From a virus: 64,000 nt of DNA. The number at the start of each line of letters is the position of its first letter. Position 1 is the first letter of the stretch. Positions 18,677 through 62,616 of this stretch are shown here, piece by piece. The notes under the pieces were generated by a model, which saw only the letters and a list, made by a program, of their open reading frames with translations, was not told the origin of the DNA and made no database searches. Made by a program: the position numbers and the translations under genes. The stretch spans positions 1 to 64,000 of the IMG/VR virus record IMGVR_UViG_3300025677_000006. One strand, written 5' to 3'.

Positions 18677-20134
18677 TTAATTTTTCCATAAATAACCATT
18701 TACTCTTTTTTCATTTTTACACCATCTTGATATTGTGGATTGATTAACATTTTCAAAAACACTCGCCTTTTTTGTTGATTCAAATTCAATAATTTCATTA
18801 GTTTTTAAATTAACTTTAAATACCTTTTTGCAAATTATTTCTTTTTGTTTTTCAGACAATCCAATTTGTTTTTTTGTTTTACTAATTTTTTGTTTAGTTT
18901 CTTCTGTATGGTTTTTACCTAACCAATATTTAGAAGAATTTTTACTTAAAATTAATTTATCTTGCTTTGTTTTTTTTCTACCGTATTTTTTTGCATCATT
19001 ACTACCTGCTTTTGAAATTCTTTTATTAATCCATTCTTTAGATTGTTTAATACCTAAATGAGAAATAGACATTTTATCTAAAGTTTCTTTTGTTGGTATT
19101 ATATTTTTACCACCACCTTCAATATTATAACCAAATTCTTTTTGGTTTGATTTATAATCACTAATATATTTAATTTCTTTATTGTTTAGTTCTTGAATTG
19201 TTTTTGCCGTATCAATTATTGTAAATTCAAAATTATCCCAACCATACTTATTGAATGCATTATTAATATAATCATTACCCAAACCATTTTTATATTCTAA
19301 TATTTTTTCATTTATTGAACGAATTGTTTGTCCAATATATAATTTGTTGTTTATTTTGTTTTTTATTTTATAAATAACGCCAATAATTTCATCATTTCTT
19401 TTAGGATATGGTAATATTAAATGATTTATAGATGTTTTATGTTTTTTATTATTTCTTGGTGTGTCTATAAAATAAAAATATCTATGTTTTCTATATTGTG
19501 GTAAAAATATTGCATTGGGATAGTGTTTTAAAATAACATTTTTTTTCATCGTACCCAATTTATTTCTAACCCATCTACTATATCTTAATTTACCATCAAT
19601 TAATACTGAAAATCTTTTTGTTTCTTTATTATTGGAATAATTACCAGACATAACACCAACATATAACCAATTTAATGATTGATAAATTGTTCCGATTTCA
19701 CCTGCTGCTGGGTCAACAGTTGCTGTTATTATTCTATATTTTGTATTATTTTTTAACCATTTACAAACCCTAGAAATAAAAAAAGATGCTGTATTTTTTG
19801 GTGTCCACCATAAACAAACACCCCTGCTTAATAATAAAATTTTATTTGTAAATCCATATTTATCCCAAACACCAGTATTTTCTGTATAATCATTACTAAA
19901 AACTAAAACACCACCTAGTTTTTGACCATTTTCTGTATTAAAATATATACCAAAACAATATTTAACAATATATGGCATTGTTTTTAACCATTCATATTCT
20001 ATTATAATTTTACTTGCAGTGTTTTTATCAATTAATTTAATTTCTGTATTATCTAAAGAAATGTTTTTATAATTAAAATCTAATATTTCTTCTTTTGATT
20101 TTTTTATTCTAATTTTATGTTGGTGTGCTTCCAT
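18677..20134 (-). CDS. GIY-YIG homing endonuclease-like protein fused to an N-terminal ~240-aa domain of unknown function, possibly a GNAT/Mom-like acyltransferase fold
   Basis: The C-terminal half has GIY-YIG (IIGVIYKIKNKINNKLYIGQT). It also has NUMOD3-like repeats (GKNHTEETKQKIS and similar) and a C-terminal HTH-like tail. The N-terminal half (..SRGVCLWW..ASFFISRVCKWL..ATVDPAAGEIGTIYQSLNWLYVG) has no Met before the GIY motif, so this is a single fused ORF. Confidence 0.65.
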   Translation of the reverse strand: MEAHQHKIRIKKSKEEILDFNYKNISLDNTEIKLIDKNTASKIIIEYEWLKTMPYIVKYCFGIYFNTENGQKLGGVLVFSNDYTENTGVWDKYGFTNKILLLSRGVCLWWTPKNTASFFISRVCKWLKNNTKYRIITATVDPAAGEIGTIYQSLNWLYVGVMSGNYSNNKETKRFSVLIDGKLRYSRWVRNKLGTMKKNVILKHYPNAIFLPQYRKHRYFYFIDTPRNNKKHKTSINHLILPYPKRNDEIIGVIYKIKNKINNKLYIGQTIRSINEKILEYKNGLGNDYINNAFNKYGWDNFEFTIIDTAKTIQELNNKEIKYISDYKSNQKEFGYNIEGGGKNIIPTKETLDKMSISHLGIKQSKEWINKRISKAGSNDAKKYGRKKTKQDKLILSKNSSKYWLGKNHTEETKQKISKTKKQIGLSEKQKEIICKKVFKVNLKTNEIIEFESTKKASVFENVNQSTISRWCKNEKRVNGYLWKN

Positions 20135-43398: not shown

Positions 43399-44104
43399 TA
43401 AAGTAGATATTTACATTGCATCATTATGGCGACAAGGTCATGCCGTTGTTGCAATTAATTCGCTAAGAAGTCAACCAGAATTTGGTACAGCAACAATTAC
43501 GTGTAATAATTGGACTGATGAGCAATGGGAATATATTAATAAAGAATTGGGCGATGATATGCGAATTAAATTATATAGGGGTAATAATGAAAAGGGTAGT
43601 AATGAAAAATTAAAATATATTGCTCATGGTAATAATTATTATATTGCGTTGGCTGATGATGATTTAATATATCCACACGATTATTTAGGTAAATTAATTA
43701 ATGGTTGTGAGAAATATAATGCACATGTTTCATTACATGGTGTTGTATTATTGAAAGGTATTATTAATAGTTATTATAGAGATAGAATTGTTTATAGGGC
43801 GTTAGGTACTGTTTTATTGGATCAAGAAGTCGATATTGTTAGTAATTGTGGTAGTTTATTTAAACGTAATTTTTATAATGATTTAGATAAATGGTATGAT
43901 TACTGTGGTAATGTATCAATGGATGATTTATATGTTAATTATTTTGCGAAAAAAAATGGGATAAAACGGTATGTTTTGTCACATGTTGAAGGGTATTTAA
44001 AACACAAAAAACAATATCCTGAAGATAATTATGTTTTTGATAAACACAAAAACGATGATAGTGTGCAAACTAATTTTATTAATAACGTATTTTTAAAGGT
44101 GTGA
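43385..44104 (+). CDS. Glycosyltransferase-like protein
   Basis: 239 aa with YIALADDDLIYP (a DxD-like motif). The ATGA overlap with the upstream gene suggests coupling. Confidence 0.4.
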   Translation: MIMNSKVDIYIASLWRQGHAVVAINSLRSQPEFGTATITCNNWTDEQWEYINKELGDDMRIKLYRGNNEKGSNEKLKYIAHGNNYYIALADDDLIYPHDYLGKLINGCEKYNAHVSLHGVVLLKGIINSYYRDRIVYRALGTVLLDQEVDIVSNCGSLFKRNFYNDLDKWYDYCGNVSMDDLYVNYFAKKNGIKRYVLSHVEGYLKHKKQYPEDNYVFDKHKNDDSVQTNFINNVFLKV

Positions 44105-44721
44105 TTGATAATAATAGTACTGATGGTACAACACAATGGTTAAAATCTATTGTAGTTGATGGATATTATAAAATAAAGCCAATTTTTTTAGATTATAATT
44201 CAGGTGATTTTGGTGGGACTAAATTGGGTTATGAAAATTTGGATGATGATTGTGTTTATACTATGCAATGGGATAATGATCGTCCACCAATAACAGAAAA
44301 TTTTTTGGATAAAATTGTGAATATAATGGATGCCTTTCGAAATATTGGTCAATTAATGTTAAAAAGAACGGGTGTTGGTAATATAATTCAACCAATAAAT
44401 ATTCAAGAATATAATGGTGTTTTTTTTGGTGATGTTAATACGGTAACTTGTGTTAATATACAGAGAAGAAAAGTAATTGATGATATTAATTATTGGGTTT
44501 GTGATGAATCTGTTTATTGGGATTTTATGATAAATCAAGAAATGCTTAAACGTGGTTATCAATTAAAAAAGTGTTTAAATGTAATTGTGTCGCATATTGA
44601 TGTGTTTCCAGAATTAAATTTTAATTTACAAAAATTAAAATTTCCAAATTATTTTAATAATAAAAGTAAGATTAACTACACCGAGATTGATTATAATTGT
44701 GATAATAATGAGAAAAAATAA
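44101..44721 (+). CDS. Hypothetical protein (GTG start overlapping upstream stop; begins VIDNNSTDGT)
   Basis: 206-aa ORF. The N-terminal DNNSTDGT resembles the GT2 DxGSTDGT motif, but no upstream partner is in frame. Confidence 0.35.
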   Translation: MIDNNSTDGTTQWLKSIVVDGYYKIKPIFLDYNSGDFGGTKLGYENLDDDCVYTMQWDNDRPPITENFLDKIVNIMDAFRNIGQLMLKRTGVGNIIQPINIQEYNGVFFGDVNTVTCVNIQRRKVIDDINYWVCDESVYWDFMINQEMLKRGYQLKKCLNVIVSHIDVFPELNFNLQKLKFPNYFNNKSKINYTEIDYNCDNNEKK

Positions 44722-45421
44722 AAACAATATTAAGAGAATAATAAAAAAAAGGATTAATATTATTAATTCTAATAATATTTTTATTGAAAATAATATTAAT
44801 GACAATAAAATATATATTAACCAAAAAAACATTAATGATAATTTAATAGTCAATGATGTTGATGTTAACAATATTAGTAATACATATGATTATGCTTATA
44901 TTTTTAATAACAAAAAACATAATACAGAATTAAAAACATTGGTGTTAATCTCAAATTATATGAGAATTGACATGTTGACTATGATATTAAATGAAATAAA
45001 AGAATATAATAATATTGATTATTATATATTTGATGATAGGTCAGATTATGTTTTGGATGATAATCGTTTTATTGTGAATAGTGAGCATAGAGGTAAACAT
45101 CAATATTGGAAAACATTTGATGAGATGTTTAAAATGTGTGAAAAATCGAATTATGATGTGTATTGTTTCATTCCAAATGATTTTTTAAATATTAATTTTA
45201 GTAGAATATTTAAATACGCATCATTATTGTCAGAGTATTATTATGTTTTTAATATTATTAATGATGGTAGGTTAGAATCGTGGACAGGAAAAAAATCATA
45301 TAAAATTTCAGATGATATTTATATATCATTTTTTACTGATTGTGGTTTTTTTACAAATAGAAAAACATTAGAAAAATTAAAATTTACAATATTTCCAATA
45401 AAAAAAAAAATGATAAAATGA
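44687..45421 (+). CDS. Hypothetical protein with low-complexity K/N/I-rich N-terminus
   Basis: 244-aa ORF. The C-terminal half has DYYIFDDRSDY (a DxD-like motif). Confidence 0.35.
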   Translation: MIIIVIIMRKNKNNIKRIIKKRINIINSNNIFIENNINDNKIYINQKNINDNLIVNDVDVNNISNTYDYAYIFNNKKHNTELKTLVLISNYMRIDMLTMILNEIKEYNNIDYYIFDDRSDYVLDDNRFIVNSEHRGKHQYWKTFDEMFKMCEKSNYDVYCFIPNDFLNINFSRIFKYASLLSEYYYVFNIINDGRLESWTGKKSYKISDDIYISFFTDCGFFTNRKTLEKLKFTIFPIKKKMIK

Positions 45422-45575
45422 GTTCAGGTGTTGGTAGACAATTGTCAATAAGATTGCGTGATTTAAAAATACCAATATTTACACCTATTAAAAGTTTTGC
45501 ATATCATGGTGACCATGAATCATTAATGAATCCTGAAGTTAGAAAAATTCATAAAATAATTTCATTATAAAAAGA

Positions 45576-46010
45576 ATGAATATGAAAAATAATGTTGTTA
45601 TAAAAAATTTTAAATATGATAATTTTCAATATTCATTTAAAGGAGTTGAAAATGAACATATTTTTAAACAAATACCTTGGTATGAACAAGAATTATTAGA
45701 ATATATTAGTAATTTAAATTTAAATGGTGTTTATGTTGATGTTGGTGGTAATATAGGAAATCATTCATTATTTTTTGCCAATCATTGTAATTCAACAAAA
45801 TTATATATATTTGAACCAGAAAATTTTTGTTTTAACATTTTAAATGAGAATTTATCAAAAAATTCAAAAAAACAATATGTTTTAAGAAATATTGCTTTAT
45901 GGAACAAAAAAGATGAATTAAATTTAATTAAATATGAAACATATCAAAATACTGGAATATCGAAAGTAATTGAAAAAAATAAAAACAATGACAATTTATT
46001 ATTTATAAAA
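45576..46010 (+). pseudogene. FkbM-family methyltransferase, N-terminal portion, interrupted by IS insertion
   Basis: VYVDVGGNIGNHSLFFANH is the FkbM SAM-binding motif. The reading frame runs into IS sequence after ...DNLLFIK. Confidence 0.6.
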
Positions 46011-46055
46011 CGGAGCGTAAAACCCACAAATCTTTAGTTTGTGGGATGTAAGCGA

Positions 46056-46469
46056 CTAGCCCTGATTGAGAATATACTCACGAATGGTATCAGGAGAAGC
46101 CTCACCAATTGAGCAAACGAAATAACCATCTGACCAAAAAGTGTGTTCTTTCCAAAAATGTTTAAATAAGAATGACCTGTGAGATGAACGCCAAATGTGA
46201 TAGGCAGATTCTTGTTTTAACTTACGAACTATTGAAGTAATGGATAAACTAGGAATGTAGCGAATAAGAAAGTGAATGTGGTCTAAATCAGATTCAAAGA
46301 CTTCAATTTCAAAATCTGAATTAGAAGTAATGTTTAAAAGAATAGAACGCATATCATCTTTTAACTGACCAACAAGCAACTTTTTACGGTACTTGCAGAC
46401 AAAAATAAGATGGCACTTGAGATAATGCTTTGAACGATTTGTAGAAATGTACTGTGATTTTTTAGACAT
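46056..46469 (-). CDS. tnpA: IS200-type HUH (Y1) transposase TnpA
   Basis: 137 aa with HIHFLI (the HuH motif) and a conserved Tyr region, typical of the IS200 TnpA family. Confidence 0.85.
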   Translation of the reverse strand: MSKKSQYISTNRSKHYLKCHLIFVCKYRKKLLVGQLKDDMRSILLNITSNSDFEIEVFESDLDHIHFLIRYIPSLSITSIVRKLKQESAYHIWRSSHRSFLFKHFWKEHTFWSDGYFVCSIGEASPDTIREYILNQG

Positions 46470-46559
46470 AACGAAGCAAGTTTTTGTGAAAGTTTTTACC
46501 CAAAGACGGAACTTTTACAAAACTTGCGTATTTAGTATAAATATAGTATATTTGTAAAC

Positions 46560-47750
46560 GTGAAAACAATATATAGGACATATCGCTTTGAATTAAGACC
46601 GACACAAGACCAAAAAGTGTTGCTGGATAAACACTTCGGGTGTGTTAGGTTCGTGTACAATTACTTTCTGAATGAGCGTAAAGAACAGTATCAGGCAAAC
46701 AAGAAGTCTGACAACTATTATGTTCAAGCAAAAACTTTGACTGAATTAAAAAAGCAAGAGGAAACTGCTTGGCTTAAAGAAGTAAACAGCCAAACCCTGC
46801 AATTTGCTTTAAGGTCTTTGGATACTGCATTCCTTAACTTCTTTCGTGGCAATGCCAAGTTTCCAAGATTTAAGTCTAAGAAAAGAAGGAATAGTTTCAC
46901 CGTACCACAACACACAAAATTAGAAGGTAGTAAAATTCACGTACCTAAATTCAAAGAAGGGATTAAATGTATTGTTCACCGTGAAATAAGGGGCGATGTT
47001 GGCAAAATGACCTTTACTAAAACACCGACTGGAAGATACTATGTTTCAATTTTAACCGAAGAACAATATCAACCAAAAGAAAAAACTGGTGCTGTATGTG
47101 GTGTGGATTTAGGTTTGAAAGATTTTGCCATTACTTCTGACGGCATCAAATTCAAGAATAACAGATATACCAAGAAATATGAAAGAGATTTAGCGAAAGC
47201 ACAAAAACATCTTTCTCGTAAGCAAAAAGGTAGCAATTCGTTTGAAAGACAAAAACGAAAAGTTGCCAAAATACACGAGAAAATATCCAACACAAGACAA
47301 GATGTATTGCATAAGGTATCGCATCAACTTGTTTCTGATTATGACATAATTGCTTTGGAAGACCTTAATGTAAAGGGAATGATGAGCAATAGAAAATTAT
47401 CAAAACACATTGCAGATGCAAGTTGGGGTACATTTGTGAGATTCTTGGAGTACAAAGCAGATTGGAACGATAAACAAGTTGTTAAAATCAATCGCTTTTA
47501 CCCCTCAAGCAAAACTTGTAATGTGTGTGGATGGATAAATCAAGATTTAAATCTTTCGGTTCGTGAATGGACTTGCAAAAATGGACATAAATTAGACCGT
47601 GATTTAAATGCAGCAAAGGTCATTCTGAAAGAAGGATTGAAAATAATATCGGGTGGGACGCTCGATAACACGGATGGAGATGGTGTAAGAAGTAGTAATA
47701 CTCAACTATCTGCGAAGTCCGAAGCCCATTTGTCTTTAGCAAATGGGTAG
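46560..47750 (+). CDS. tnpB: IS605 OrfB / TnpB RNA-guided nuclease family protein
   Basis: 396 aa. N-terminal YRFELRPT..Q, a RuvC-like core, and a C-terminal zinc finger CNVCGW...CKNGHKLDRDLNAA. Confidence 0.85.
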   Translation: MKTIYRTYRFELRPTQDQKVLLDKHFGCVRFVYNYFLNERKEQYQANKKSDNYYVQAKTLTELKKQEETAWLKEVNSQTLQFALRSLDTAFLNFFRGNAKFPRFKSKKRRNSFTVPQHTKLEGSKIHVPKFKEGIKCIVHREIRGDVGKMTFTKTPTGRYYVSILTEEQYQPKEKTGAVCGVDLGLKDFAITSDGIKFKNNRYTKKYERDLAKAQKHLSRKQKGSNSFERQKRKVAKIHEKISNTRQDVLHKVSHQLVSDYDIIALEDLNVKGMMSNRKLSKHIADASWGTFVRFLEYKADWNDKQVVKINRFYPSSKTCNVCGWINQDLNLSVREWTCKNGHKLDRDLNAAKVILKEGLKIISGGTLDNTDGDGVRSSNTQLSAKSEAHLSLANG

Positions 47751-48008
47751 TTCACAATTTCAAATACATTGGATGATGAAATTTCATTAAATGAAAATGT
47801 TGTGTTGATTAAAATAGATACTGAAGGTGCTGAAAGAAAAATACTTGATGGTGGTATAAATTTAATAAAAAACAAATTACCTGTTATTATTTGTGAAGCA
47901 GCAACAAGTGAAGAATTTAAAGAAATTGATGATTTTTTAAAACCTTTGGGATATAAAACACCCACAAGAAGATTTAATGCAACACCAACATATATTTGGG
48001 TTTGTTAA
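47751..48008 (+). pseudogene. FkbM-family methyltransferase, C-terminal portion (continuation after IS)
   Basis: TLDDEISLNENVVLIKIDTEGAERKILDGGINLI matches the FkbM C-terminal KIDvEGaE motif. It is in frame directly after the IS right end. Confidence 0.55.
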
Positions 48009-48038
48009 ACTATATTTATTATGTAAAAAAATAATATT

Positions 48039-48794
48039 ATGGATAAAGTATTAGTTATTGGTGATAGTTGTATTGATGAATTTCAATATGGTGTTTGTGA
48101 AAGAATTAGTCCTGAAGCACCAGTGCCTATTTTTAAGAGTTTGTATGGTGTTCAATCTAGTGGTATGGCAAGTAATGTTAAAAATAATTTAGAAGGTTTA
48201 GGTATTTCGTGTGATATAATTACAAATACTATGGTAAAACCACATAAATTAAGATTTGTTGATAAAAAAACAAATCAAATGTTACTTAGGGTTGATGGTT
48301 ATGATAGGATTGTTGAAAAAGCAGAAGAATATTTAGTTAATATTAATTTTAATGATTATGATGCTATTGTAATTTCAGATTATGATAAAGGTTTTCTTAC
48401 TGAAAATACTATAACAAATATAACAAATAAACACAAATTAGTTTTTTTAGATAGCAAAAAAAAGTTTGGAAAATGGGCAGATGGTATAGAATTCATAAAA
48501 GTTAATGAAAATGAGTTTAATAATAATTCAAAGTATTTAATTGATGATTTTAAGGGTGAATTAATTATTACCTTGGGGGATGAAGGTGCTAGACATAATG
48601 ATGTTTTATATCATGTTGAACAACAATATGCTATTATTAATTTAGCGGGTGCTGGTGATACTTTTTTTGCAGGTTTTGTGGCAAATTATTTAGAATTTGG
48701 AAATATTCCAAAAGCAATTAATTTTGCAAATAAATGTGCTTCTTGGGTTGTTTCCCAAAAAGGTGTTGGTGTTATAAATAAAAGTAATATATGA
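48039..48794 (+). CDS. hldA: D-glycero-beta-D-manno-heptose-7-phosphate kinase (HldE kinase domain / HldA-like, PfkB family)
   Basis: [29 protein letters not shown] aligns with E. coli HldE ([28 protein letters not shown]). Also has the GAGDTF PfkB motif. Confidence 0.8.
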   Translation: [251 protein letters not shown]

Positions 48795-49174
48795 TAAAAA
48801 TTTTAAACATAAATGATTTGGATTTTGAATCTATTGTTGAGAAAAAATGGGGTCGTGAAATAATACTACATAATGATGAAAATTATTGTGGTAAAATACT
48901 TCAATTTAAATCTGGTTCTAAATTTAGTATGCATTACCATTTAAAAAAAGAAGAAACCTTTTATGTAAATAAAGGAAAATTAATATTAAATTATATTGAT
49001 ACTAATGATGCTACTGAATATTCAAGAGAACTTAATATTGGTGATGTTATTCATATTGAACAGGGTGACCCACATCAAATAATAGCATTGGAAGATAGTG
49101 AAATTATTGAAATATCAACACAACATTTTGATTTTGATAGTTATAGAATAAGAAAGGGTGATAGTCAATCATGA
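48791..49174 (+). CDS. Cupin-domain protein (possible sugar-nucleotide epimerase/isomerase)
   Basis: 127 aa. KWGREI...SMHYH...ETFYV..G is a cupin-like His cluster. It sits inside the heptose operon with ATGA overlaps on both sides. Confidence 0.45.
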   Translation: MIKILNINDLDFESIVEKKWGREIILHNDENYCGKILQFKSGSKFSMHYHLKKEETFYVNKGKLILNYIDTNDATEYSRELNIGDVIHIEQGDPHQIIALEDSEIIEISTQHFDFDSYRIRKGDSQS

Positions 49175-49461
49175 TAATTTATGTAGATATTGATAATACA
49201 ATATGTTATACGAATGGAAATGATTATGTTAATTCAATACCAAATTTTGAAAACATCAAAAAGGTAAATAAACTATATGATGATGGTAATATAATAATAT
49301 ATTGGACAGGAAGGGGTATGAAAAGTGGTTTAGATTGGACTAATTTAACAAAAAAACAACTATCTGATTGGGGTTGTAAATATAATGAATTAATAATGAA
49401 TAATAAACCAGCCTTTGATTTATTAATAGATGATAAGGCAATAAAAATTGATGAATTATGA
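49171..49461 (+). CDS. Minimal HAD-superfamily phosphatase (GmhB-like candidate)
   Basis: 96 aa carrying all four HAD motifs: DIDNT (I), IYWTGR (II), NNKP (III), LLIDDKA (IV). Confidence 0.5.
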   Translation: MIIYVDIDNTICYTNGNDYVNSIPNFENIKKVNKLYDDGNIIIYWTGRGMKSGLDWTNLTKKQLSDWGCKYNELIMNNKPAFDLLIDDKAIKIDEL

Positions 49462-49883
49462 GAGTTTGGGTAAATGGTTGTTTTGATATTCTTCATAGTG
49501 GTCATATTGATTTATTGTGGTTTGCAAAAAGATATGGTGTTACTAAAAAGAAACAAAATAAATTAAATAAACTATTTGTTGGTTTAGATAGTGATGAACG
49601 TATAAAAGAATTAAAAGGGGATAATCGTCCAATAAATGATTTAGAAACAAGAGTTAAAATAATGTCAAGTTTAAATATGGTTGATGTTGTTGCTATATTT
49701 AATACGGATGATGAATTAAAAAATTATATAAAGAACTTAAAAATTGATTGTATGGTTGTTGGTGATGAATATAAAAATAAAACAGTTATTGGTTCTGAGT
49801 ATTCAAAATATGGTGTTGTTTATTATCCAAAAACAAACGGAAAATCAACAACCGATATTATTAATAAAATAAAGAAATTATGA
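49458..49883 (+). CDS. hldC: D-glycero-beta-D-manno-heptose-1-phosphate adenylyltransferase (HldE domain II / HldC)
   Basis: [16 protein letters not shown]...[16 protein letters not shown].LETRV...GDEY...[10 protein letters not shown] aligns along its length with the E. coli HldE C-terminal domain ([50 protein letters not shown]). Confidence 0.85.
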   Translation: [141 protein letters not shown]

Positions 49884-50794
49884 TTGTAATTACTGGTGGT
49901 GATGGTTTTATTGGTAGAAATTTAGTGTTTGAATTTTCTATAACGAATAATAAATTACCAATTAAAATTCTTGATACTAAAAGAGAAAGTTTAAATGATA
50001 TTTATATTTGGTTAACAAATAATGCTAGTAGTATTAAAACTATTATTCATTTGGGTGCAATTACAGATACTACATTAGAAAATAGTGAACTTTTTTATGA
50101 ATATAATTTAGGTATGTCTATGTTTATTTGGAAACTATGTTCTAAATATGATATAACATTAATTTATGCTAGTTCTGCTGCAACGTATGGTGATGGTAGT
50201 TATGGTTTTGATGATAAATCGGATATTTGGAAATTAAAACCATTGAATTTATATGGTTGGTCAAAACATAATTTTGATTTATGGTCACAATTAGAACATA
50301 AATCACCTAAGAATTGGTATGGTTTGAAGTTTTTTAATGTGTATGGTAAATTTGAAGAATATAAACTTAGAATGTCTTCAATGATATATCAAATATATAA
50401 TCAAATTATTGATAATGGGTATGTAAAATTATTTAAATCAAACACATTTAATATTTTGGATGGTGAACAGAAAAGAGATTTTATTCATATTGATGATGTT
50501 GTAAATGTTATAATATTTTTAATAAATAGATTACCAAAATCAGGTATTTATAATGTTGGAACAGGAATTGCAAGGTCGTTTAATGATATTGCTAATATTA
50601 TTTTTCACAATTTAGGAATACCACCTAATATTAAGTATATTGATATTCCAGATAGTATATCAGATAAATATCAAAATTTTACAGAAGCAAAAATTGATAA
50701 ATTAAAAGAAATTGGTTATTCTATTAAATTTAAGAGTTTAGAATATGGAATTAGTGAATATTTAAAATATTTAAATTATTTAAAAAAATGGTAA
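49880..50794 (+). CDS. hldD: ADP-L-glycero-D-manno-heptose-6-epimerase (HldD/RfaD, SDR family)
   Basis: MIVITGGDGFIGRNL, YASSAATYG, KPLNLYGWSK (the YxxxK motif), FFNVYG, KRDFIHIDDV, NVGTG..RSF and YQNFTEAKIDKLKEIGY all match E. coli HldD. Confidence 0.85.
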   Translation: MIVITGGDGFIGRNLVFEFSITNNKLPIKILDTKRESLNDIYIWLTNNASSIKTIIHLGAITDTTLENSELFYEYNLGMSMFIWKLCSKYDITLIYASSAATYGDGSYGFDDKSDIWKLKPLNLYGWSKHNFDLWSQLEHKSPKNWYGLKFFNVYGKFEEYKLRMSSMIYQIYNQIIDNGYVKLFKSNTFNILDGEQKRDFIHIDDVVNVIIFLINRLPKSGIYNVGTGIARSFNDIANIIFHNLGIPPNIKYIDIPDSISDKYQNFTEAKIDKLKEIGYSIKFKSLEYGISEYLKYLNYLKKW

Positions 50795-51429
50795 AGATTG
50801 GTAATATTATTTATGAAGATGAATTGGTAAATCATATTATGGTTGATTATGTTAACTACATAAAAGAACCAATTGAATATTCAATTATTGATAAATCTTT
50901 ACCAACATTATACGTTGGATGGAATTTTATGAAATCAACAAATCAAGATAATGAAATTATACAAAATGCCGATATTCTAAAAAAGAAAATAATAACCAAT
51001 GAACTGTATTGGGAATTTTCTTTTAATGAGAATAAATCATCACACATTAAAGGTATTGAGAAATTTATAAATTTATTACCAGAATTTTATTTTTCACCAA
51101 AATATATGTATGTTGATTTAGACCCTGTTTTTTTCCATTTAAGAAATGTTGAAGATTTAATGGATGTATTACCAAAAACAATAGATTTGTTTTATCAGTA
51201 TAAAGATGAAATAATTTATGTATTATTTGATAATAAAATATGGGGTATTAATTTAAATATTTATAAGTTTTTTCAATTTGATGTTGAATTATTAAATACT
51301 TCTATTTCTAATAGATGTTATAAGTATGGTTATTATGATGTTGATGGTGAAATTTATAATAAATATAAAAAACTACTTCCTGATTTTACCAAATTAAAAA
51401 GATATATAGTTACAATATTATCAAAATGA
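50788..51429 (+). CDS. Hypothetical protein (last gene of heptose operon by overlap)
   Basis: 213 aa. Overlaps hldD by 7 nt. Confidence 0.4.
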   Translation: MVKIGNIIYEDELVNHIMVDYVNYIKEPIEYSIIDKSLPTLYVGWNFMKSTNQDNEIIQNADILKKKIITNELYWEFSFNENKSSHIKGIEKFINLLPEFYFSPKYMYVDLDPVFFHLRNVEDLMDVLPKTIDLFYQYKDEIIYVLFDNKIWGINLNIYKFFQFDVELLNTSISNRCYKYGYYDVDGEIYNKYKKLLPDFTKLKRYIVTILSK

Positions 51430-51655
51430 ATGTTAAGTAGTATTTATAATAAATAAATTATAATTGCTATGGAAAATAAAATTGATAAAGTAATTGACGA
51501 TTTTATTGATAATGAAAATCAAGAAACCCAAAATAAAGAATTTAATAAAAGGGTTATAAAAAAAAGTGATAATTCTATTATTGAACGTCTTGATAAAATC
51601 ATTATTGCAGAAAATGGTAAACAATTACTAAGAGAGGTTTATTAATAACATTCAT

Positions 51656-52360
51656 ATGAAAAAAAATATTAGTTTAAATCCAATAGATAAGCATTTGGAT
51701 AGAATAAAATATGTTGTAGATTATAAAATTAACGAATCTGCTAGATATATACCAATTAGTAATTTAGATGAATTTGACGAAATTCCAAATACTAATGAAG
51801 CGGATGATGTTGTAAATGATGATAATTTAGAAAAAAAACCAAAAATTAATAATCCTGAAAAACAAGAGGATGATACTGGTGGAGTTCCAGCAGAAACGCC
51901 AATACCTTCATTTGATGCAGAAAATCCCAATGAAAATCCAAATAATGAATTAAATAATGAACCTGTAAATGAACCTCAAGAAAATGTTGATAATATTCAA
52001 AATGATATTATTAGACATAATATTGAAGCCATGAAAACTATTCATAGTGAATTGGAAAATCTTAACAATATGGTTCAATCGTTAAATTCAAAATTGGATG
52101 TTTTAAATTCTGATGTGGAAGAAGTTCGTGAACCATCAACCGTTGAAAAATTAACATCAAGAAAAAATGTTAGTTATCCATATTATTTTAATTTAAACGA
52201 TATGTGGAGTAATAATTGGTTTAATAATAAATATAATACTGGTGATAATATGGAAAATGGTGTTAGAGAATTACCTGATGGTACTTTTATTGCAGATTTT
52301 GATGATTTACCACAAAAATCAAGAATTGATATAAAAAATAGTTTTACTGAAATTGATTAG
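51656..52360 (+). CDS. Hypothetical acidic protein
   Basis: 234 aa with an N/E/P-rich low-complexity region. Confidence 0.35.
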   Translation: MKKNISLNPIDKHLDRIKYVVDYKINESARYIPISNLDEFDEIPNTNEADDVVNDDNLEKKPKINNPEKQEDDTGGVPAETPIPSFDAENPNENPNNELNNEPVNEPQENVDNIQNDIIRHNIEAMKTIHSELENLNNMVQSLNSKLDVLNSDVEEVREPSTVEKLTSRKNVSYPYYFNLNDMWSNNWFNNKYNTGDNMENGVRELPDGTFIADFDDLPQKSRIDIKNSFTEID

Positions 52361-52809
52361 TGATGGTGTTAAAAGGAAATCAACATAGTAAAGAAAGATT
52401 TTTTGATTTATTTAAAAAAGTTAATTATATTAATGAATCTAAATTATCACCAGAAAAAAAAATGAAAATCCTTAATGATTTTGTGAATTTTGTTGGAAAT
52501 AAATTGGATATTATGGATAATTTACCAAATATAAAAATATCTAATGATGATTTTGCAGCAAAAAAAATGAAATCATTTGGTAAATATACACCAGATTTAA
52601 AAGAAATTGTTGTTGTAATGGTAAATAGAAATTTGGCAGATGTTTTAAGAACATTAGCACATGAAATAGTCCATCATAAACAGAATTTAGAAAATAAATT
52701 AGATGTTAATTCAAATGATGATGGTAGTGATATTGAAAATGAAGCCAATGCATTAGCAGCAGTTTTTATGAGAGAATATGGTAAAAATAATCCTATAATA
52801 TTTGAATAA
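52360..52809 (+). CDS. Small HExxH-motif protein (possible zinc metallopeptidase-like)
   Basis: LAHEIVHH motif in a 149-aa ORF. Confidence 0.35.
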   Translation: MMVLKGNQHSKERFFDLFKKVNYINESKLSPEKKMKILNDFVNFVGNKLDIMDNLPNIKISNDDFAAKKMKSFGKYTPDLKEIVVVMVNRNLADVLRTLAHEIVHHKQNLENKLDVNSNDDGSDIENEANALAAVFMREYGKNNPIIFE

Positions 52810-52811
52810 TT

Positions 52812-54887
52812 ATGAGAGTTTTTAGTCCAATTGGTAGTAAAGAAAGATTATTTGAAATGCTTCAAAGAGTAAATAAAATTACTTTAAATGAGGAAAATAT
52901 AATAAATAATCCAATAGAAAATTTAAAAATAGTATTCAATCAACTACTTAATGATGAAATTGAAATTAAAAGAATAACAAATGATATTGAATCAAATGAA
53001 TGTTATACAACAATTGATTGTTTAGGTGAAAATAATAGAGAAATTAATTTTGTTTTCAAAAGTGAATTTATTGAAAGGGAAACTGATGGTGTAATTGAAA
53101 TTGAAGATTCAAAATTAATTAATTTTTTTATGGGCAATGATGGTGATTCATTAAACATTGATGAAAACACACTAAAAGAATTTAATGATGATTATAATAC
53201 AGAAATTATTGATTTTATTTCTAATTATATTAATTTTGAAGATGATATGAAATCAAAGGTTGATGATTTGGATGAAGTTATTAAATTAATTGATAATATT
53301 CCATATAAAAGAAGTACAGAAGAATTACAAAATCATAAATCCTATGTTGATGAAAAACCAACAAATCCGAATCTTAGAGTAAACTCACCCGAATTAAATT
53401 CATATGTTACTGAAAATAATGATGATTTTGATGATGATTTTAATTATGATGATTTAGATGATGAAGATTTGGATGATGGATTAGATTATGATGATAATTT
53501 TGGAAATAATTTAAATAATGATATTGATTTTGATGATGATTCCAATTTAGTAAATAAATATAGTGATAAGGATGCAATGAAGTATAAAGATTTAGAAAAT
53601 GATTATGATGATGAAAACATATCTAATTTAGATTATGAAAATATGGAAAGTTCATCAGAAGATGATGAATTATATAATAAAGCATTTGATAATTTAATGA
53701 TGAAAAATAAAACACAAAAAAATCCAAATTATTTTCCGTCAAAATCTGAAGTTGAAAGAGAAGTAAATAGAATTTCTAATTTAAATAAAGAACCCGAAAA
53801 AAGAAAAAAAGGAATGAGAATGGCTAAAAATAAAACACGTGTATATCCATCATGGGCTGATAATTATTTAAGTGAAAATAAATTAAAAAACACAAATGTT
53901 GATTATATTGAATGGAAGTATTTTAATTCAACTAGTGATGAATTTAAAACGTTTTTAATAAAAAGAGCAGATAATATAATCACTAATAAATATGGTATTA
54001 ATAAATTCAAAATACCAAAAGAAAAATATCATAATTTGATAAGAGATTTAGTCGTTGTATTATTTAAAGAACATATAAGAAGTATGAATGAATCTGAAGA
54101 TGATGTCATTAAGAATGCTGAAGATAATGAAAATCTTAATATTGGTGATGTTGTTGAAGTAAATGGAATAGAAGGTACATTTCAAATAGGTGTTTTAGCA
54201 AGAGAAGGTAAACCTTTTATAATGCCTTTTGATATGAATACAAAAAAACCATATACAAGATTTAGAATATATCTATTTTCATTGAAAGATACTAACATGA
54301 AAAGAATTATGAGGTTTTCAGAAACTGATGGTGGTTTTATTATTGAATCAGAAGAAGAAATTGAAACAACTGAAAAAAATAATTTAGATATTGAAAATCT
54401 TGCAAAAAAAAGGGATGAAATCGGTGACCAAATTGAAGGTGGTCTTGGTGATGATAAGTCACCATTGGAATTTGACCCAGAACAAATTAAATTGGGAATG
54501 AAGGTTGAAATGGAACATACTAATGACCCTATGATTGCATTGGAAATAGCATTAGACCATTTAACTGAAGACCCTAAATATTATACTGTTAAAGAAGACC
54601 CAGAAATAAGCGCACAATTTAATGCAAGTAAGGAAGCAAGTGAATATGATAATGAAAAGGAATTGGTAGATGAATTGTTGGGTTATAAGCCAATAAATGT
54701 TGGTGATTTAACTGAAGAAATTGTTGGTTCTGATAATGCAAAATCGGTTGTGGGTGGTCAAAGTTCTGATAATAATGATGATGAAATAAAAAAATATCAG
54801 GAATATGAAAAGAAAGATTTTAATAGTTTAAGGGATGATGAAAAAGAAGAATTTTTTGAATTATGGAAAAAATATAGAGAAAAATAA
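52812..54887 (+). CDS. Hypothetical protein with strongly acidic D/N-rich central region
   Basis: 691-aa ORF. Confidence 0.4.
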   Translation: MRVFSPIGSKERLFEMLQRVNKITLNEENIINNPIENLKIVFNQLLNDEIEIKRITNDIESNECYTTIDCLGENNREINFVFKSEFIERETDGVIEIEDSKLINFFMGNDGDSLNIDENTLKEFNDDYNTEIIDFISNYINFEDDMKSKVDDLDEVIKLIDNIPYKRSTEELQNHKSYVDEKPTNPNLRVNSPELNSYVTENNDDFDDDFNYDDLDDEDLDDGLDYDDNFGNNLNNDIDFDDDSNLVNKYSDKDAMKYKDLENDYDDENISNLDYENMESSSEDDELYNKAFDNLMMKNKTQKNPNYFPSKSEVEREVNRISNLNKEPEKRKKGMRMAKNKTRVYPSWADNYLSENKLKNTNVDYIEWKYFNSTSDEFKTFLIKRADNIITNKYGINKFKIPKEKYHNLIRDLVVVLFKEHIRSMNESEDDVIKNAEDNENLNIGDVVEVNGIEGTFQIGVLAREGKPFIMPFDMNTKKPYTRFRIYLFSLKDTNMKRIMRFSETDGGFIIESEEEIETTEKNNLDIENLAKKRDEIGDQIEGGLGDDKSPLEFDPEQIKLGMKVEMEHTNDPMIALEIALDHLTEDPKYYTVKEDPEISAQFNASKEASEYDNEKELVDELLGYKPINVGDLTEEIVGSDNAKSVVGGQSSDNNDDEIKKYQEYEKKDFNSLRDDEKEEFFELWKKYREK

Positions 54888-54987
54888 ATTTAAATAATAT
54901 TTCTTTTTTGAAAAAGGACTACTTATTGTAGTCTTTTTTTGTTGTTGTTGAAAATATTACTATTTATATTAGAATAAATTTATCATT

Positions 54988-56403
54988 ATGAGTAGAATTA
55001 GAAGTTATTTTAAAAAGTCAAATACTTTAATAACAAATAATACAACAAATAATTCTCAAAATCCTGTTACCGAAATATCATATGGTACTTATGATGGTTG
55101 TGTTAGTAGATATATTTTTGATATTGATTTTTCTTTATTAAGAAAAAGAATAGAAAGGGGTATTATTATTCAAAACAATATTAAAAAACATATTTTACAC
55201 ATGACAAATACAATTGGTAGGGATTTAAAATATGTTGGAAAAAAATCATATTCGGAAATGATTGAAAGAGCAAGTAGTTTTGAATTGGAAGTTTTTAATC
55301 TTTCTGAAGATTGGGATGAAGGAAATGGTTATGATTTATTATATGATGATACATTTGCTGATAAATCATCAAAACATGCATCCAATTGGTTTAATAGAAA
55401 AACAAATTTATTTTGGAATGTAGATGGTGTTTATTCAACTGGTAATACTGAAATTATTGGAAATCAAAGATTTGAAAAGGGTAATGAAAATATTGAAATT
55501 GATATTACTGATTATGTAAACCAAAGATTATTTGAAAATGAATATAGTGGTAATACTGTTTTTAGTGGTGATTCTTTTGGTTTAGGGATTAAGTTTTTAG
55601 ACTTATATGAATCTTTGGAAACAGATTTTAGACATGCAGTTGCTTTTCATACAAATAAAACAAACACGTGGTATGAACCGTATGTTGAAACAATTTATGA
55701 TGATATCATATTAGATGATAGAAATTATTTTTATTTAGATAAAAAAAATAGATTATATTTATATACAAATTCTATTAGTATTTTAAATAATAATGAAATT
55801 ATTGTTAATCATGTAAATATATATGATAATAATAATAATTTTATTGAAACCATTAGTGGTGATTCAATTACGAATGTTGGTAATGGAATTTATTTTGTTG
55901 AATATAAAATAAATTCAAATGAATATCCTGATAGTGTTTTATTTGTAGATGAATGGAATTTAACAATGAATGGAGTTGAAAGTAATTATTATAGTAAATT
56001 TTATTTGATATCACCAGAAAAATATTTTATAATTAATGAAGAATCACAACTAAATTTAGAAAATTATCATTTTAATTTTTGGGGAATTAAAGAATCTGAA
56101 CAAATAAAATCTGGTGATATAAGGAAAATAAAAATATCGGTTAAAGAATTGTATACAAACCAAAACAATTTTATTCCATTAAATATTGAATATAGAGTAT
56201 ATATAAAAATTAGTGATGGATATGAAATTGATGTAATACCATTTACTAGTGTAAATAGAACCAAATTTGGATATTATTTTAATTTAGATACATCGTGGTT
56301 AATACCACAAGTTTATTATATTCAAATTAAGTTAAAATCGGGCGAATATTTTGATATAAAACAACCATTATCGTTTGAAATAGTAAATGATGGATTTTTT
56401 TAA
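54988..56403 (+). CDS. Hypothetical protein
   Basis: 471-aa ORF. Confidence 0.4.
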   Translation: MSRIRSYFKKSNTLITNNTTNNSQNPVTEISYGTYDGCVSRYIFDIDFSLLRKRIERGIIIQNNIKKHILHMTNTIGRDLKYVGKKSYSEMIERASSFELEVFNLSEDWDEGNGYDLLYDDTFADKSSKHASNWFNRKTNLFWNVDGVYSTGNTEIIGNQRFEKGNENIEIDITDYVNQRLFENEYSGNTVFSGDSFGLGIKFLDLYESLETDFRHAVAFHTNKTNTWYEPYVETIYDDIILDDRNYFYLDKKNRLYLYTNSISILNNNEIIVNHVNIYDNNNNFIETISGDSITNVGNGIYFVEYKINSNEYPDSVLFVDEWNLTMNGVESNYYSKFYLISPEKYFIINEESQLNLENYHFNFWGIKESEQIKSGDIRKIKISVKELYTNQNNFIPLNIEYRVYIKISDGYEIDVIPFTSVNRTKFGYYFNLDTSWLIPQVYYIQIKLKSGEYFDIKQPLSFEIVNDGFF

Positions 56404-56508
56404 TTATTAGTTGAATTTATTTGTATATTTGAAAAAACTGAAATATATTTGTATTGTAATTTAATTTTAATTGTAAAAATAATAACTGTAACTTAAAAAA
56501 CTGAAATT

Positions 56509-57765
56509 ATGAGTAATGTAACTGAAGGAAAATCACCACAAGGTGGTGATTTATCACAACTGAAAAAAATGTTTGCTGACTATCAAAAAAAACAATCACA
56601 AGCAAACAAAAAAACATCATCCCGTGAAAATATTCTTGCTAAGTATTTTGTGCCTAGAAATACGAAAGAAACGTTTAGAATATTACCACCAAAACAAGGT
56701 AGAAAACATATTGAAGAAGCCTATTTTCATGTTGTTACTACAAACATTGCGGGTGGTGTAAAAAAGCATGGTACAATTCTTTATTGTCCTGCACACAATG
56801 ACCCTAGAGTTCCAAAAATTGGTAGTGATGGTAAACCTATGTTAGACCAAAACAATAATCCAATTTTAGTTCCAGCACCATGTCCTCTATGTGCAAAGTA
56901 TAAAAAACTATTATCACAACAAGACCCATCATTAATTGGTGTTAAGAAAGAGGAAATGAATGATGTTCAAAAAAGAATAAAGGCAAAAAACGATGAAATA
57001 TATAAAGAAGCCATTAAATGGGAAGCAAAGAAATTTTATATAATTCGTGGTATTGATAAAGGTGCTGAAAAGGATGGTGTTAAATTTTGGAGATTTAAAC
57101 ACAATTATAAAAATCAAGGAACTCTTGATAAACTACTTCCAATTTTAGAAGATTATATGATGATGAATCAAGCAGATTTTTCAGACCCATATAATGGAAC
57201 TGATTTAAATATTATAATGACTGATAGTGAATTTAATGGTCGTGTTTATAAGGCAATATCAGCAATTACAGCAAGAGGAAAATCTAAATTATCACAAGAC
57301 CCTCTTGTGATGAAACAATGGCTTGATGATGATATTAGTTGGAGAGATGTTTTCTTACCAAAGAAAGCACCAAATATAACACCATTTGAATTTTTAGAAA
57401 TGGTTGTAAGTGGTACTAATCCATATTGGGATGATACTGATGCAAAAAATAAACGTTGGGTATTTCCAAATAGACCTGATTTGGAAGAATTAGCAAATAC
57501 ACGTAAAATGAATTTAGATTCAACTGAAGATGATAATTTTGAATATGCTTCTGATTTAGAGGATGTTGAATATCCACGTGTAACAATAAGCAATATAACC
57601 GAATCTGATGTTGGAACATATGATGATGATGCTACTGATTTAGGTAGTGATGTTATGGAAAATGAAGATGATTTGAATGAGAATGATTCAAATGATGATT
57701 CAGAAATAAGTGATTTTTCTGATTATGATATGGATTCTGATGATTATGATGATTTACCATTTTAA
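56509..57765 (+). CDS. Single-stranded DNA-binding protein, T4 gp32 family
   Basis: ETFRILPP matches gp32 (AVIRFLPS). A zinc-ligand cluster LYCPAHND...PAPCPLCAKY parallels the gp32 His/Cys3 site. KFWRFKHNYK matches gp32 (KVFKYRFGKK). The C-terminal tail is acidic. Confidence 0.7.
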   Translation: MSNVTEGKSPQGGDLSQLKKMFADYQKKQSQANKKTSSRENILAKYFVPRNTKETFRILPPKQGRKHIEEAYFHVVTTNIAGGVKKHGTILYCPAHNDPRVPKIGSDGKPMLDQNNNPILVPAPCPLCAKYKKLLSQQDPSLIGVKKEEMNDVQKRIKAKNDEIYKEAIKWEAKKFYIIRGIDKGAEKDGVKFWRFKHNYKNQGTLDKLLPILEDYMMMNQADFSDPYNGTDLNIIMTDSEFNGRVYKAISAITARGKSKLSQDPLVMKQWLDDDISWRDVFLPKKAPNITPFEFLEMVVSGTNPYWDDTDAKNKRWVFPNRPDLEELANTRKMNLDSTEDDNFEYASDLEDVEYPRVTISNITESDVGTYDDDATDLGSDVMENEDDLNENDSNDDSEISDFSDYDMDSDDYDDLPF

Positions 57766-57774
57766 TTTATTTTT

Positions 57775-57820
57775 AAATCCAATTGGTGTTGATTAAAATA
57801 CCAATTGGATTTTTTTTTAT
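57775..57820 (+). terminator. Strong rho-independent terminator
   Basis: 13-bp stem AAATCCAATTGGT / ACCAATTGGATTT with a 12-nt loop, followed by T9. Confidence 0.65.
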
Positions 57821-57845
57821 TTAATTTTAATAAAATTTATATATA

Positions 57846-58988
57846 ATGAAAAACGATTCTTTAAATTTAGATAGTGATGGTATTCAAGGAAATAAAAGAA
57901 AACCAACACCCAAAAAAACATTTTCTTTAGAGAACTTTAAGAAAAAGGCAAATGTTGAAGATGTACCCAATAAACCATTAGAATGGATTACTTTATCTTC
58001 AGGTTTTAAAAAAGCAACAGGTCTTCCTGGTGTAGCAAAGGGTTATGTTAATTTATTTCGTGGACATACAAATACAGGAAAGTCAACAGCAATTTGTGAA
58101 ACATTAGTTGAATCTCAAAAAATGGGAATTTTACCTATTCTAATAGATACAGAAAATAATATGGGTAAAGGTAATTATCGATTAAGTGAGTTGGGTTTTG
58201 ATTTTGATAATTATATAAGAGTGGATAATGATTATCTTTTGACTGAATTTGGAAAAAAACAAAATAAAAATAGAAATGAAGCATCAATTGAAGATTTAGC
58301 AAAATGTTTTTATTATTTTTTAGACATGCAAGAATCTGGTGAATTACCATACGATTTATTATTTGCAATTGATTCTATTGGTACATTAAATTGTATAAAA
58401 ACAATTGATGCAGCAGAAAAAGACGATACACAAAACAATATGTGGAATGCTGGTGCATATGAAAAATCTTTTATGTATTTGTTAAATAATATAATACCAA
58501 GTAGTAGAAAGGGTAATAGAAAATATACAAATACTGTAGCAGCAGTTCAAAAAATTTGGATTGATAATATGAATAAAGGTGTGGTAAAACATAAAGGTGG
58601 TGAAACTTGGTATTTAGGTTCTAGGTTAATATATCATTTTGGTGGAATTATTACACATGGAACTAAAGCAGCAGTTGCTGAGAGTAAAAAACGTGTTGTT
58701 TCATATGGTATTGATACAAAAATTGGTGTTGCAAAAAACCATATTGACGGTCCGTTGGGTGGTATATCAATGCAAGGTAGAATTGTTTCAACACCATTGG
58801 GTTTTGTACATCCTGATGATATTCCTGATTTCAAGAAAAAACATATTCTTTATTTTAGAAATCTTTTTGGTGATGATTCTATTAATGAAAATGATTTAGT
58901 TCTTTCAACAAAGAACATTGATGGGGAAGGAAAAATATCATTTGAAGATGATATTGTAGAACATATGGATTTTGAAGATGAAGATTAG
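57846..58988 (+). CDS. RecA/UvsX-family recombinase-like ATPase
   Basis: Walker A FRGHTNTGKSTAI. LLFAIDSIGTL matches the UvsX IDSLGNL Walker B region. Size is 380 aa against 391 aa for UvsX. Confidence 0.55.
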   Translation: MKNDSLNLDSDGIQGNKRKPTPKKTFSLENFKKKANVEDVPNKPLEWITLSSGFKKATGLPGVAKGYVNLFRGHTNTGKSTAICETLVESQKMGILPILIDTENNMGKGNYRLSELGFDFDNYIRVDNDYLLTEFGKKQNKNRNEASIEDLAKCFYYFLDMQESGELPYDLLFAIDSIGTLNCIKTIDAAEKDDTQNNMWNAGAYEKSFMYLLNNIIPSSRKGNRKYTNTVAAVQKIWIDNMNKGVVKHKGGETWYLGSRLIYHFGGIITHGTKAAVAESKKRVVSYGIDTKIGVAKNHIDGPLGGISMQGRIVSTPLGFVHPDDIPDFKKKHILYFRNLFGDDSINENDLVLSTKNIDGEGKISFEDDIVEHMDFEDED

Positions 58989-62543: not shown

Positions 62544-62616
62544 GTACAATTAACTCAATGGATAGAGTGTTCATTCACAATATGAAATATTGTTGGTTCG
62601 ATTCCAACATTGTAAA
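62544..62616 (+). tRNA. tRNA (73 nt), anticodon unclear (loop TCACAAT, formally ACA)
   Basis: Canonical cloverleaf. Acceptor GTACAAT/ATTGTAA with a G1:A72 mismatch. D-arm ACTC-AATGGATA-GAGT. Anticodon stem TTCAT/ATGAA. T-arm GTTGG-TTCGATT-CCAAC. Confidence 0.5.

Follow-up and report, generated by a model that had tools for sequence, protein, structure and literature searches.

IS608 of Helicobacter pylori is the mechanistic paradigm of single-strand transposition by Y1 HUH transposases. In this element, AAAG is said to pair with TTAC at the left cleavage site and GAAT with TCAA at the right one. In ISDra2 of Deinococcus radiodurans, the target pentanucleotide and transposon-adjacent motif (TAM) is TTGAT, whereas TTTAT is the experimentally validated TAM of GstTnpB2, from the ISGst2 element of Geobacillus stearothermophilus (PMC10055086). 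TnpB loaded with omega-RNA cuts the vacant donor site and recombination then restores the transposon, a TnpB-assisted retention that is established for bacterial elements (PMC10055086; review PMC13565253). In phages, the elements ISCaje1-4 were described in 2010 in the virulent T4-like Campylobacter phages CP220 and CPt10 (PMC2853527), and a tnpB was reported in cyanophage A-1(L) (10.64898/2026.02.14.705889). Here we analysed a 64,000-nucleotide stretch of viral DNA (positions 1 to 64,000 of IMG/VR record IMGVR_UViG_3300025677_000006, hereafter "the window"), in which a single copy of an IS200/IS605 insertion sequence (IS) interrupts fkbM, a phage gene for an FkbM methyltransferase. The segment 46007-47755 (1,749 bp) is very probably an autonomous and recently mobile member of this family, with divergent IS605-type tnpA and tnpB, which inserted 3' of TTTAT and inactivated fkbM.

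Like ISDra2, the element has its pentanucleotide target on the 5' side of the left end, lacks a target duplication, and carries subterminal hairpins as well as a structured RNA covering the tnpB 3' end and the right end; moreover, its TnpB could be aligned over the full length and shows the same RuvC D-E-D residues, and its TnpA matched the ISDra2 structures. It differed from ISDra2 in the target and TAM (TTTAT), the divergent arrangement of tnpA and tnpB, the missing fourth zinc-finger Cys and the phage replicon. With ISGst2 it shared the target and TAM as well as the coexistence of full elements with gene-less derivatives like the palindrome-associated transposable elements (PATE) of that system (PMC10055086), but lineage and host are others, function was established experimentally there and is predicted here, and vacant and filled alleles are represented here by separate natural phage genomes. 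As to IS608, AAAA could be matched by inspection with TTAT (left) and GAAG with TCAC (right), which is a consistency check and not a test; in IS608 the genes are co-oriented and overlapping, and the cleavage sequences are different. ISCaje1-4, too, are carried by virulent myoviruses with AT-rich genomes, in which their positions differ from one sibling phage to another, and they are mostly tnpB-only, one having tnpA and tnpB (PMC2853527); in contrast with the element in the window, their target is ATTTT, they are unrelated to it at the DNA level, and neither an empty-site allele nor an omega-RNA analysis appears in that work. A phage-database blastn search in distant mode with the 3.8-kb region returned only weak tnpB/tnpA matches (Parabacteroides phage, 65%, and Helicobacter phages). 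The element itself is canonical biology, and IS200/IS605 elements in virulent phages were already known; what goes beyond routine is the occurrence of filled and empty alleles at two sites with a predictable TAM and guide, together with the breadth of the lineage in viral contigs.

Insertion sites, boundaries and recent movement

Removal of 46007-47755 joined the two parts of fkbM in frame, giving a protein of 227 residues with a whole-length Methyltransf_21 match. The uninterrupted gene was found in a sibling phage (L143; Logan contig SRR27686863_1182, 20.3 kb), where it encodes an intact FkbM of 225 residues (P0121) that was 99% identical to the joined protein and displayed the predicted junction (...DNLLFI/ISNTLDDEIS...). 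L143 was 99.98% identical to window positions 47756-58008 (2 mismatches in 10,253 nucleotides, nt), with identity starting exactly at 47756, and its empty site reads ...TTATTATTTAT/AATTTCAAATACATTGG..., i.e., ...TTTAT/AATTTC..., without target-site duplication. The empty site and the intact gene together proved the insertion, and also excluded that related phages encode the N-terminal and C-terminal FkbM fragments by separate genes. The initial annotation, which had proposed an IS200/IS605 element with tnpA and tnpB within a phage fkbM gene, was thus borne out by this empty site, by the Pfam matches and by hairpins with the loop TCTTTAG at both ends.

In the window, the 5' fkbM open reading frame (ORF) enters the element and stops at 46037, so that its 153-residue product consists of 144 native and 9 element-encoded residues. 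Since no ribozyme is present, fkbM is inactivated by the insertion, in agreement with the earlier suggestion that part of the glycan-modification module had been inactivated; this explains why fkbM is annotated as two fragments. An exact look-up of the 153-residue truncated FkbM yielded no gene record, though the cluster table lists two JGI contigs, and filled alleles were retrieved with a 151-residue FkbM call made from the second ATG (P0219).

The alignment with L143 left a 2-nt ambiguity at the boundary, owing to two shared A residues, which was resolved by a second insertion site. In two further siblings, L224 and L225, the element lies 1.4 kb upstream of fkbM, in a class I S-adenosylmethionine methyltransferase gene (Methyltransf_23; L143 7701-8285) (site B, the fkbM site being site A). 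The site B copy was identical to that of the window over 1749/1749 positions in L224 (JGI 3300010347, 54.7 kb) and 99.5% identical in L225 (ENA ERZ795050). Its junctions read ...AAATTTTTTAT/AAAACGG...GTTCAC/TGATTATAATATTGAA, again with insertion after TTTAT; as no bases are shared there by element and flank, the element was fixed as AAAACGG...TAGTTCAC. The ends first proposed, 46011 and 47765, were therefore off by 4 and 10 nt, respectively. The element was richer in GC than its surroundings, as had been noted, but at 35.2% and not about 40%, the window as a whole having 24.8% GC and the 6-kb flanks 23.5%; in the GC profile, values climbed from ~20% to 30-38% between roughly 45950 and 47800.

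Site A was also filled in L226, L227 and L228, which come from three studies and were 99.7-100% identical over the part of the element that they hold, whereas L143 was empty at both sites. Three states (site A filled, site B filled, both empty) thus occurred in genomes 99.9-100% identical in the compared flanks. The presence of an identical element at two TTTAT sites in near-identical siblings indicated very recent movement within the phage lineage, and a recent arrival had already been suspected from base composition.

All defining features of the IS200/IS605 family and of a TnpB system of the OMEGA type (obligate mobile element-guided activity) that could be tested were found in the element. 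Subterminal imperfect palindromes at both ends take the place of terminal inverted repeats, namely CCCACAAA-TCTTTAG-TTTGTGGG at 46023-46045, conserved in related copies, and CCCATTTG-TCTTTAG-CAAATGGG at 47725-47747. Insertion occurred 3' of TTTAT without target duplication in the two filled/empty comparisons, and TTTAT was present at 32/32 distinct insertion sites of the family; at these left junctions, TTTAT is followed 4 nt later (3-5 nt) by a conserved CGGAGCG and the upstream sequence is unrelated. Likewise, 41/41 distinct related right ends stop at ...TAGTTCAC (TTCAC). This terminus was invariant among the 41 copies, the right-end hairpin stem presented compensatory changes among them, and the sequence 3' of TTCAC was unrelated. 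The coordinates of all features are collected in Table 1.

Table 1. Features of the interrupted fkbM locus (window coordinates)
Feature	Position	Strand	Remarks
5' part of interrupted fkbM, 143 codons + 2 nt	45576..46006	+	99% identical to intact P0121
Target pentanucleotide TTTAT, predicted TAM for TnpB	46002..46006	+	directly 5' of left end
Complete IS200/IS605-family insertion sequence	46007..47755	+	1,749 bp, no target-site duplication; alignment with empty site breaks between 46006 and 47756
Left end	46007..46055	+	AAAA (46019-46022) adjoins hairpin foot; hairpin 46023-46045
tnpA, 137-residue Y1 HUH transposase	46056..46469	-	Pfam Y1_Tnp, E = 5.6e-32, profile positions 3-121 of 121
Divergent intergenic region tnpA-tnpB, 90 nt	46470..46559	.	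promoters presumed there
tnpB, 396 residues, GTG start	46560..47750	+	Pfam HTH_OrfB_IS605, OrfB_IS605, Cas12f1-like_TNB (E = 1.1e-22)
Predicted omega-RNA (right-end RNA, reRNA) scaffold, ~187 nt	47569..47755	+	overlaps tnpB 3' end and right end; six helices
Right-end core	47721..47755	+	GAAG (47721-47724), hairpin 47725-47747, terminal cleavage tetranucleotide TCAC (47752-47755)
Predicted 16-nt guide AATTTCAAATACATTG	47756..47771	+	flanking phage DNA read through from right end; unique in window
3' part of interrupted fkbM, KIDTEGAE motif to stop	47756..48008	+	79-residue ORF 47769-48008, Methyltransf_21 E = 2.5e-10

The upstream flanks of the window and L143 were not equally conserved. Positions 44096-45471 of the window and 7690-9070 of L143 correspond to a mosaic module swap between the siblings, the window carrying a GT2-like gene of 206 residues plus ORFs of 244 and 50 residues and L143 the Methyltransf_23 gene plus an ORF of 301 residues. 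Identity jumped from ~50-70% to ~100% at ~45472. The possibility that the IS forms the recombination boundary of the two haplotypes was rejected, since this break lies some 535 bp upstream, away from the element.

Transposase, TnpB and predicted omega-RNA

The region contained four ORFs, of 153 (45576-46037, + strand), 137 (46469..46056, - strand), 396 (46560-47750, + strand) and 79 residues (47769-48008, + strand). The anticipated transposase and TnpB profiles were indeed matched, by Y1_Tnp in the second ORF and by three TnpB domains in the third. TnpA displayed DHIHFLI as its HUH motif, with the catalytic Tyr located in REYILNQ, and was aligned to ISDra2 TnpA (2xm3) and IS608 TnpA (2a6m) with E ~4e-13 and with both features in register (DHIHFLI opposite DHVHLLL, REYILNQ opposite QKYIESQ). 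Residues 8-9 to 393 of TnpB were aligned with the ISDra2 TnpB structures 8bf8, 8exa and 8h1j (E = 2e-76), and the RuvC D-E-D triad was intact (D in GVDLG, E in ALEDL, D in DRDLNAA) at the catalytic positions of ISDra2 TnpB. Of the 8,000 candidates scored with TnpB, 7,996 passed E <= 1e-20, the best being 94% identical. Judging from conserved domains and catalytic residues, tnpA and tnpB are apparently both functional. A domesticated, nuclease-dead TnpB of the TldR type was considered and rejected, as TnpB retains its catalytic residues, neither end nor tnpA shows any loss, and mobility of the element was demonstrated. Between the IS of the window and the copies in L225 and L226 there were few differences, clustered in a 70-nt stretch of tnpB (IS positions 1090-1157, window 47096-47163); this suggests a gene-conversion patch between IS variants and not scattered point mutation.

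The 3' end of tnpB and the right end had been expected to encode an omega-RNA with a guide reading into the flanking phage DNA. No Rfam family matched at E <= 1 in 45400-48200 on either strand; assignment to a curated RNA family was thus impossible, and the structure was tested directly by covariation among 41 copies aligned over their last 240 nt. The consensus (RNAalifold) comprised 33 pairs in six helices, 16 of the pairs presenting compensatory double changes. Of the cells at paired columns, 97.5% were paired, in contrast with 28-48% when partners were slid by 1-3 columns, and 0/500 column shuffles reached any of the observed structure measures. The outermost long-range helix joins GGACU (47569-47573) with AGUUC (47749-47753), two bases from the element end. 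When 47569-47755 was folded as a single sequence, the same helices were obtained (minimum free energy -51 kcal/mol, z = -3.7). Gene-less derivatives of the element keep exactly this stretch (IS nt 1563-1749), starting at GGACTTGC. The omega-RNA structure is accordingly supported by covariation, and its function would be that known from ISDra2 and Geobacillus TnpB; the start first estimated at about 47600 was moved to near 47569, and the guide is predicted from 47756 onward.

The position of the guide was taken by analogy with ISDra2 and Gst TnpB (PMC13565253, PMC10055086). The same 16 nt also directly follow TTTAT in the empty allele of L143. By comparison with GstTnpB2, whose TAM is the same, TTTAT is predicted to be the TAM for the TnpB of the element.

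Related elements and origin

Exact matches to the 23-nt left-end hairpin were present in 104 stretches of IMG/VR, and those to the 31-nt terminus of the right end in 37. The initial annotation had regarded IS elements as rare in lytic T4-like genomes, a statement that these counts show to be overstated, as do the Campylobacter phage elements known since 2010 (PMC2853527). The closest copies in viral contigs were 84-98% identical and all ended at the same base; among them, L123 (97.9%) is without the first 99 nt. A full copy was found on the 62-kb contig IMGVR_UViG_3300030397_000356, with 99.2% identity over the first 511 nt (L102) and 94.6% over the tnpB half (L141). A head-tail adaptor gene lies beside the element in L102, and L031, a distant relative of the window phage, has a copy with 85% identity at another genomic position. 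The lineage is hence common in environmental phage contigs, very large ones included.

In bacterial assemblies, the best matches were to Bacteroidota and were obtained at the protein level, namely 89% in a Flavobacteriales metagenome-assembled genome (MAG), 85% in Algoriphagus and 74-79% over the full length in Sphingobacterium. Matches were also present in MAG contigs labelled Saccharibacteria, Patescibacteria, Methanobacterium, Pacearchaeota and Woesearchaeota. Acquisition from a bacterial host, which had been put forward on the basis of the GC contrast, is possible; as closer copies occur in viral than in bacterial contigs, circulation among phages is at least as likely, and the earlier claim was not supported in its original form.

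Miniature gene-less derivatives of ~275 bp, similar to PATE or to miniature inverted-repeat transposable elements, were detected in L115, L119, L127, L137 and L140, the last of these beside a baseplate wedge gene. In these, the left end (about nt 4-89) is joined directly to nt 1563-1749; they follow TTTAT and keep the whole predicted omega-RNA scaffold; contig IMGVR_UViG_3300045902_000325 holds two of them.

A derivative of another kind was observed at positions 1610-2751 of L211 (BPGB01000011.1, from a Candidatus Woesearchaeota MAG). Over nt 1-133 its left end was 98.5% identical to that of the element, and over the last 246 nt the right ends agreed by 100%; in the place of tnpA and most of tnpB there is a gene for a 235-residue homing endonuclease with GIY-YIG and NUMOD-like domains (Pfam). 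A protein-guided homing endonuclease is thus found within the shell of an RNA-guided one.

The 23-nt hairpin CCCACAAATCTTTAGTTTGTGGG was also seen as the left-end hairpin in several IS subfamilies with targets TTTAT or TTCAT (IMG/VR stretches L004-L107), and in others as the right-end hairpin, with TAGTTCAC, TAGTTTAC or TAGTTGAC following it; part of the contigs concerned measure 270-350 kb. A single hairpin module seems to be common to many IS200/IS605 lineages carried by phages.

Proposed mode of spread, alternative explanations and phage context

According to the IS608/ISDra2 paradigm, TnpA would move the top strand in single-stranded form by peel and paste, excising it and integrating it through a circular ssDNA intermediate; it would recognise the subterminal hairpins, and the cleavage sites TTAT (left) and TCAC (right) would be read by the hairpin-foot tetranucleotides AAAA and GAAG. 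The last ~187 nt, together with ~16 nt of flanking phage DNA, would be transcribed as omega-RNA. TnpB loaded with this RNA would cut element-free copies of the locus (TAM TTTAT followed by AATTTCAAATACATTG), and the element-bearing copy would serve as repair template, restoring the element after excision. Given many replicating genomes per cell and a phage recombinase, excised copies could be restored in this manner, and during co-infection empty sibling genomes such as L143 could be converted, resulting in homing-like spread. A "transposon non-restorative homing" into co-infected phages has been proposed (PMC13565253).

An extension of this scheme, which we put forward only tentatively and hold to be rather unlikely, is that the IS lineage is phage-adapted and spreads among co-infecting tailed phages by RNA-guided homing, the window phage, L224/L225 and L143 being snapshots of a gene drive in which methyltransferase loss is perhaps selected too. 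If true, TnpB elements would add a second class to the homing endonucleases of phages, one that is programmable, and the derivative in L211 would mark exchange between both classes. In any case, the filled and empty alleles at two sites form a natural set with exact junctions and predicted TAM and guide, usable for testing TnpB-driven homing between co-infecting viruses.

Several points weigh against reading the locus as an autonomous element that moves and homes among phages. The roles assigned to TnpA, TnpB and the omega-RNA rest on homology. The TnpB zinc finger (CxxC...CKNGH, i.e., CxxC...Cx3H; window 47576-47590, residues ~340-344) is without the fourth Cys of ISDra2 (CPNCG); the CKNGH variant is common to the close family but not to all relatives, the extra codons (TGT GG.) being kept in L147, L173, L112, L005 and L099, and its conservation in the close family suggests a functional zinc finger. 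A consensus scan found no sigma-70-like promoter for tnpB or the omega-RNA, in a promoter/terminator scan that was uninformative, promoter-like sites being fewer than in shuffled sequence and terminators zero. Expression may rely on transcription running in from phage genes, or on phage promoters of a non-canonical type; at site A and site B, tnpB points the same way as the phage genes around it, so that read-through could supply TnpB and omega-RNA. Homing between co-infecting phages is a proposal, filled and empty alleles being known as separate genomes, and both insertions could come from the host rather than from phage-to-phage movement.

Among the alternatives, the one that fared best, improbable as it seems to us, is that the insertion is kept for a benefit to the phage, and not only as a selfish parasite, either as an adaptive knock-out of glycan methyltransferases, which might for instance alter a phage-directed glycan, or because TnpB acts as a weapon against co-infecting siblings. 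The two insertions known in the lineage each interrupt a methyltransferase gene, both genes belonging to one glycan cluster; the filled form of fkbM was encountered in several samples, and interference competition between phages through intron endonucleases has been documented (cited in PMC13565253). In addition, fkbM was independently inactivated in L224 and L225 (L224:4001-4477 and L225:3165-3641), where the gene is uninterrupted but a TTG>TAG change creates a stop codon 50 nt downstream of the target at site A (window ~47806), with TTTAT and the guide target intact. However, two insertions are too few to infer targeting beyond chance when there are ~980 TTTAT sites per 64 kb, and intact fkbM alleles are commoner in the database, P0215 alone being present on 20 contigs. 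These data suggest that the methyltransferases of the glycan cluster are dispensable, and hence that the glycan-modification cluster of the phage is so in part. The 158-residue FkbM of L224/L225 was also considered as the scar of an indel left by TnpB cleavage, and this was rejected because the change is a simple substitution and the target is intact.

It is far less probable that the element is an IStron-like self-splicing insertion, combining a group I intron with an IS605 element, so that splicing of the RNA would leave fkbM expression in place. IStrons that contain TnpB have been described (PMC10690162, PMC4227781), the element lies within a coding gene in sense orientation for tnpB, and both fkbM halves and tnpB share one reading frame. 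Nevertheless, the permissive Rfam scan mentioned above returned neither a group I intron nor any other family, the 49 nt between the left boundary and the tnpA stop leave no room for the 5' domain of a ribozyme, tnpA is antisense, and the closest relatives have the same compact architecture. An assembly chimera of a phage contig and a bacterial IS, as a sharp GC step at both ends and the frequency of misassembly at IS elements might suggest, can be dismissed almost entirely, since the same junctions recur in the independent assemblies L226, L227 and L228 from different studies, excision restores an ORF identical to a natural allele, and the junctions obey the TTTAT/TTCAC rule of the family. 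A recently inserted, autonomous IS200/IS605 element thus remained the preferred explanation for the interruption of fkbM.

The window corresponds to the genome of a tailed phage, with a major head protein (phrog_138), a DnaB-like helicase, a UvsX-like recombinase and a homing endonuclease fused to a Mom-like domain. Around the element lies a gene cluster for glycosyltransferases, together with a PfkB kinase, a cupin, an epimerase and a nucleotidyltransferase. The major head protein was 31.6% identical to proteins of a Flavobacterium phage and of uncultured huge phages, and the MAG labels of related contigs were spread over Bacteroidota, candidate phyla radiation (CPR) bacteria and DPANN archaea. 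Sibling contigs and close IS copies (HPC09830.1, HPC09834.1; L147, L152, L169, L211) were present in MAGs labelled "archaeon", Woesearchaeota, Pacearchaeota, Saccharibacteria and Patescibacteria. These odd labels may reflect mis-binned AT-rich phage contigs, or they may be a hint of host range.

Two additional features of the window were observed away from the element. Adjoining the major head protein gene, at 18677-20134 on the - strand, an ORF of 485 residues combines the Mom-like domain (phrog_1384) with a homing endonuclease region of GIY-YIG/HNH type (phrog_314, phrog_7168). At 62544-62616, ARAGORN predicted a tRNA-Cys with the unusual anticodon ACA beside a tRNA-Met.

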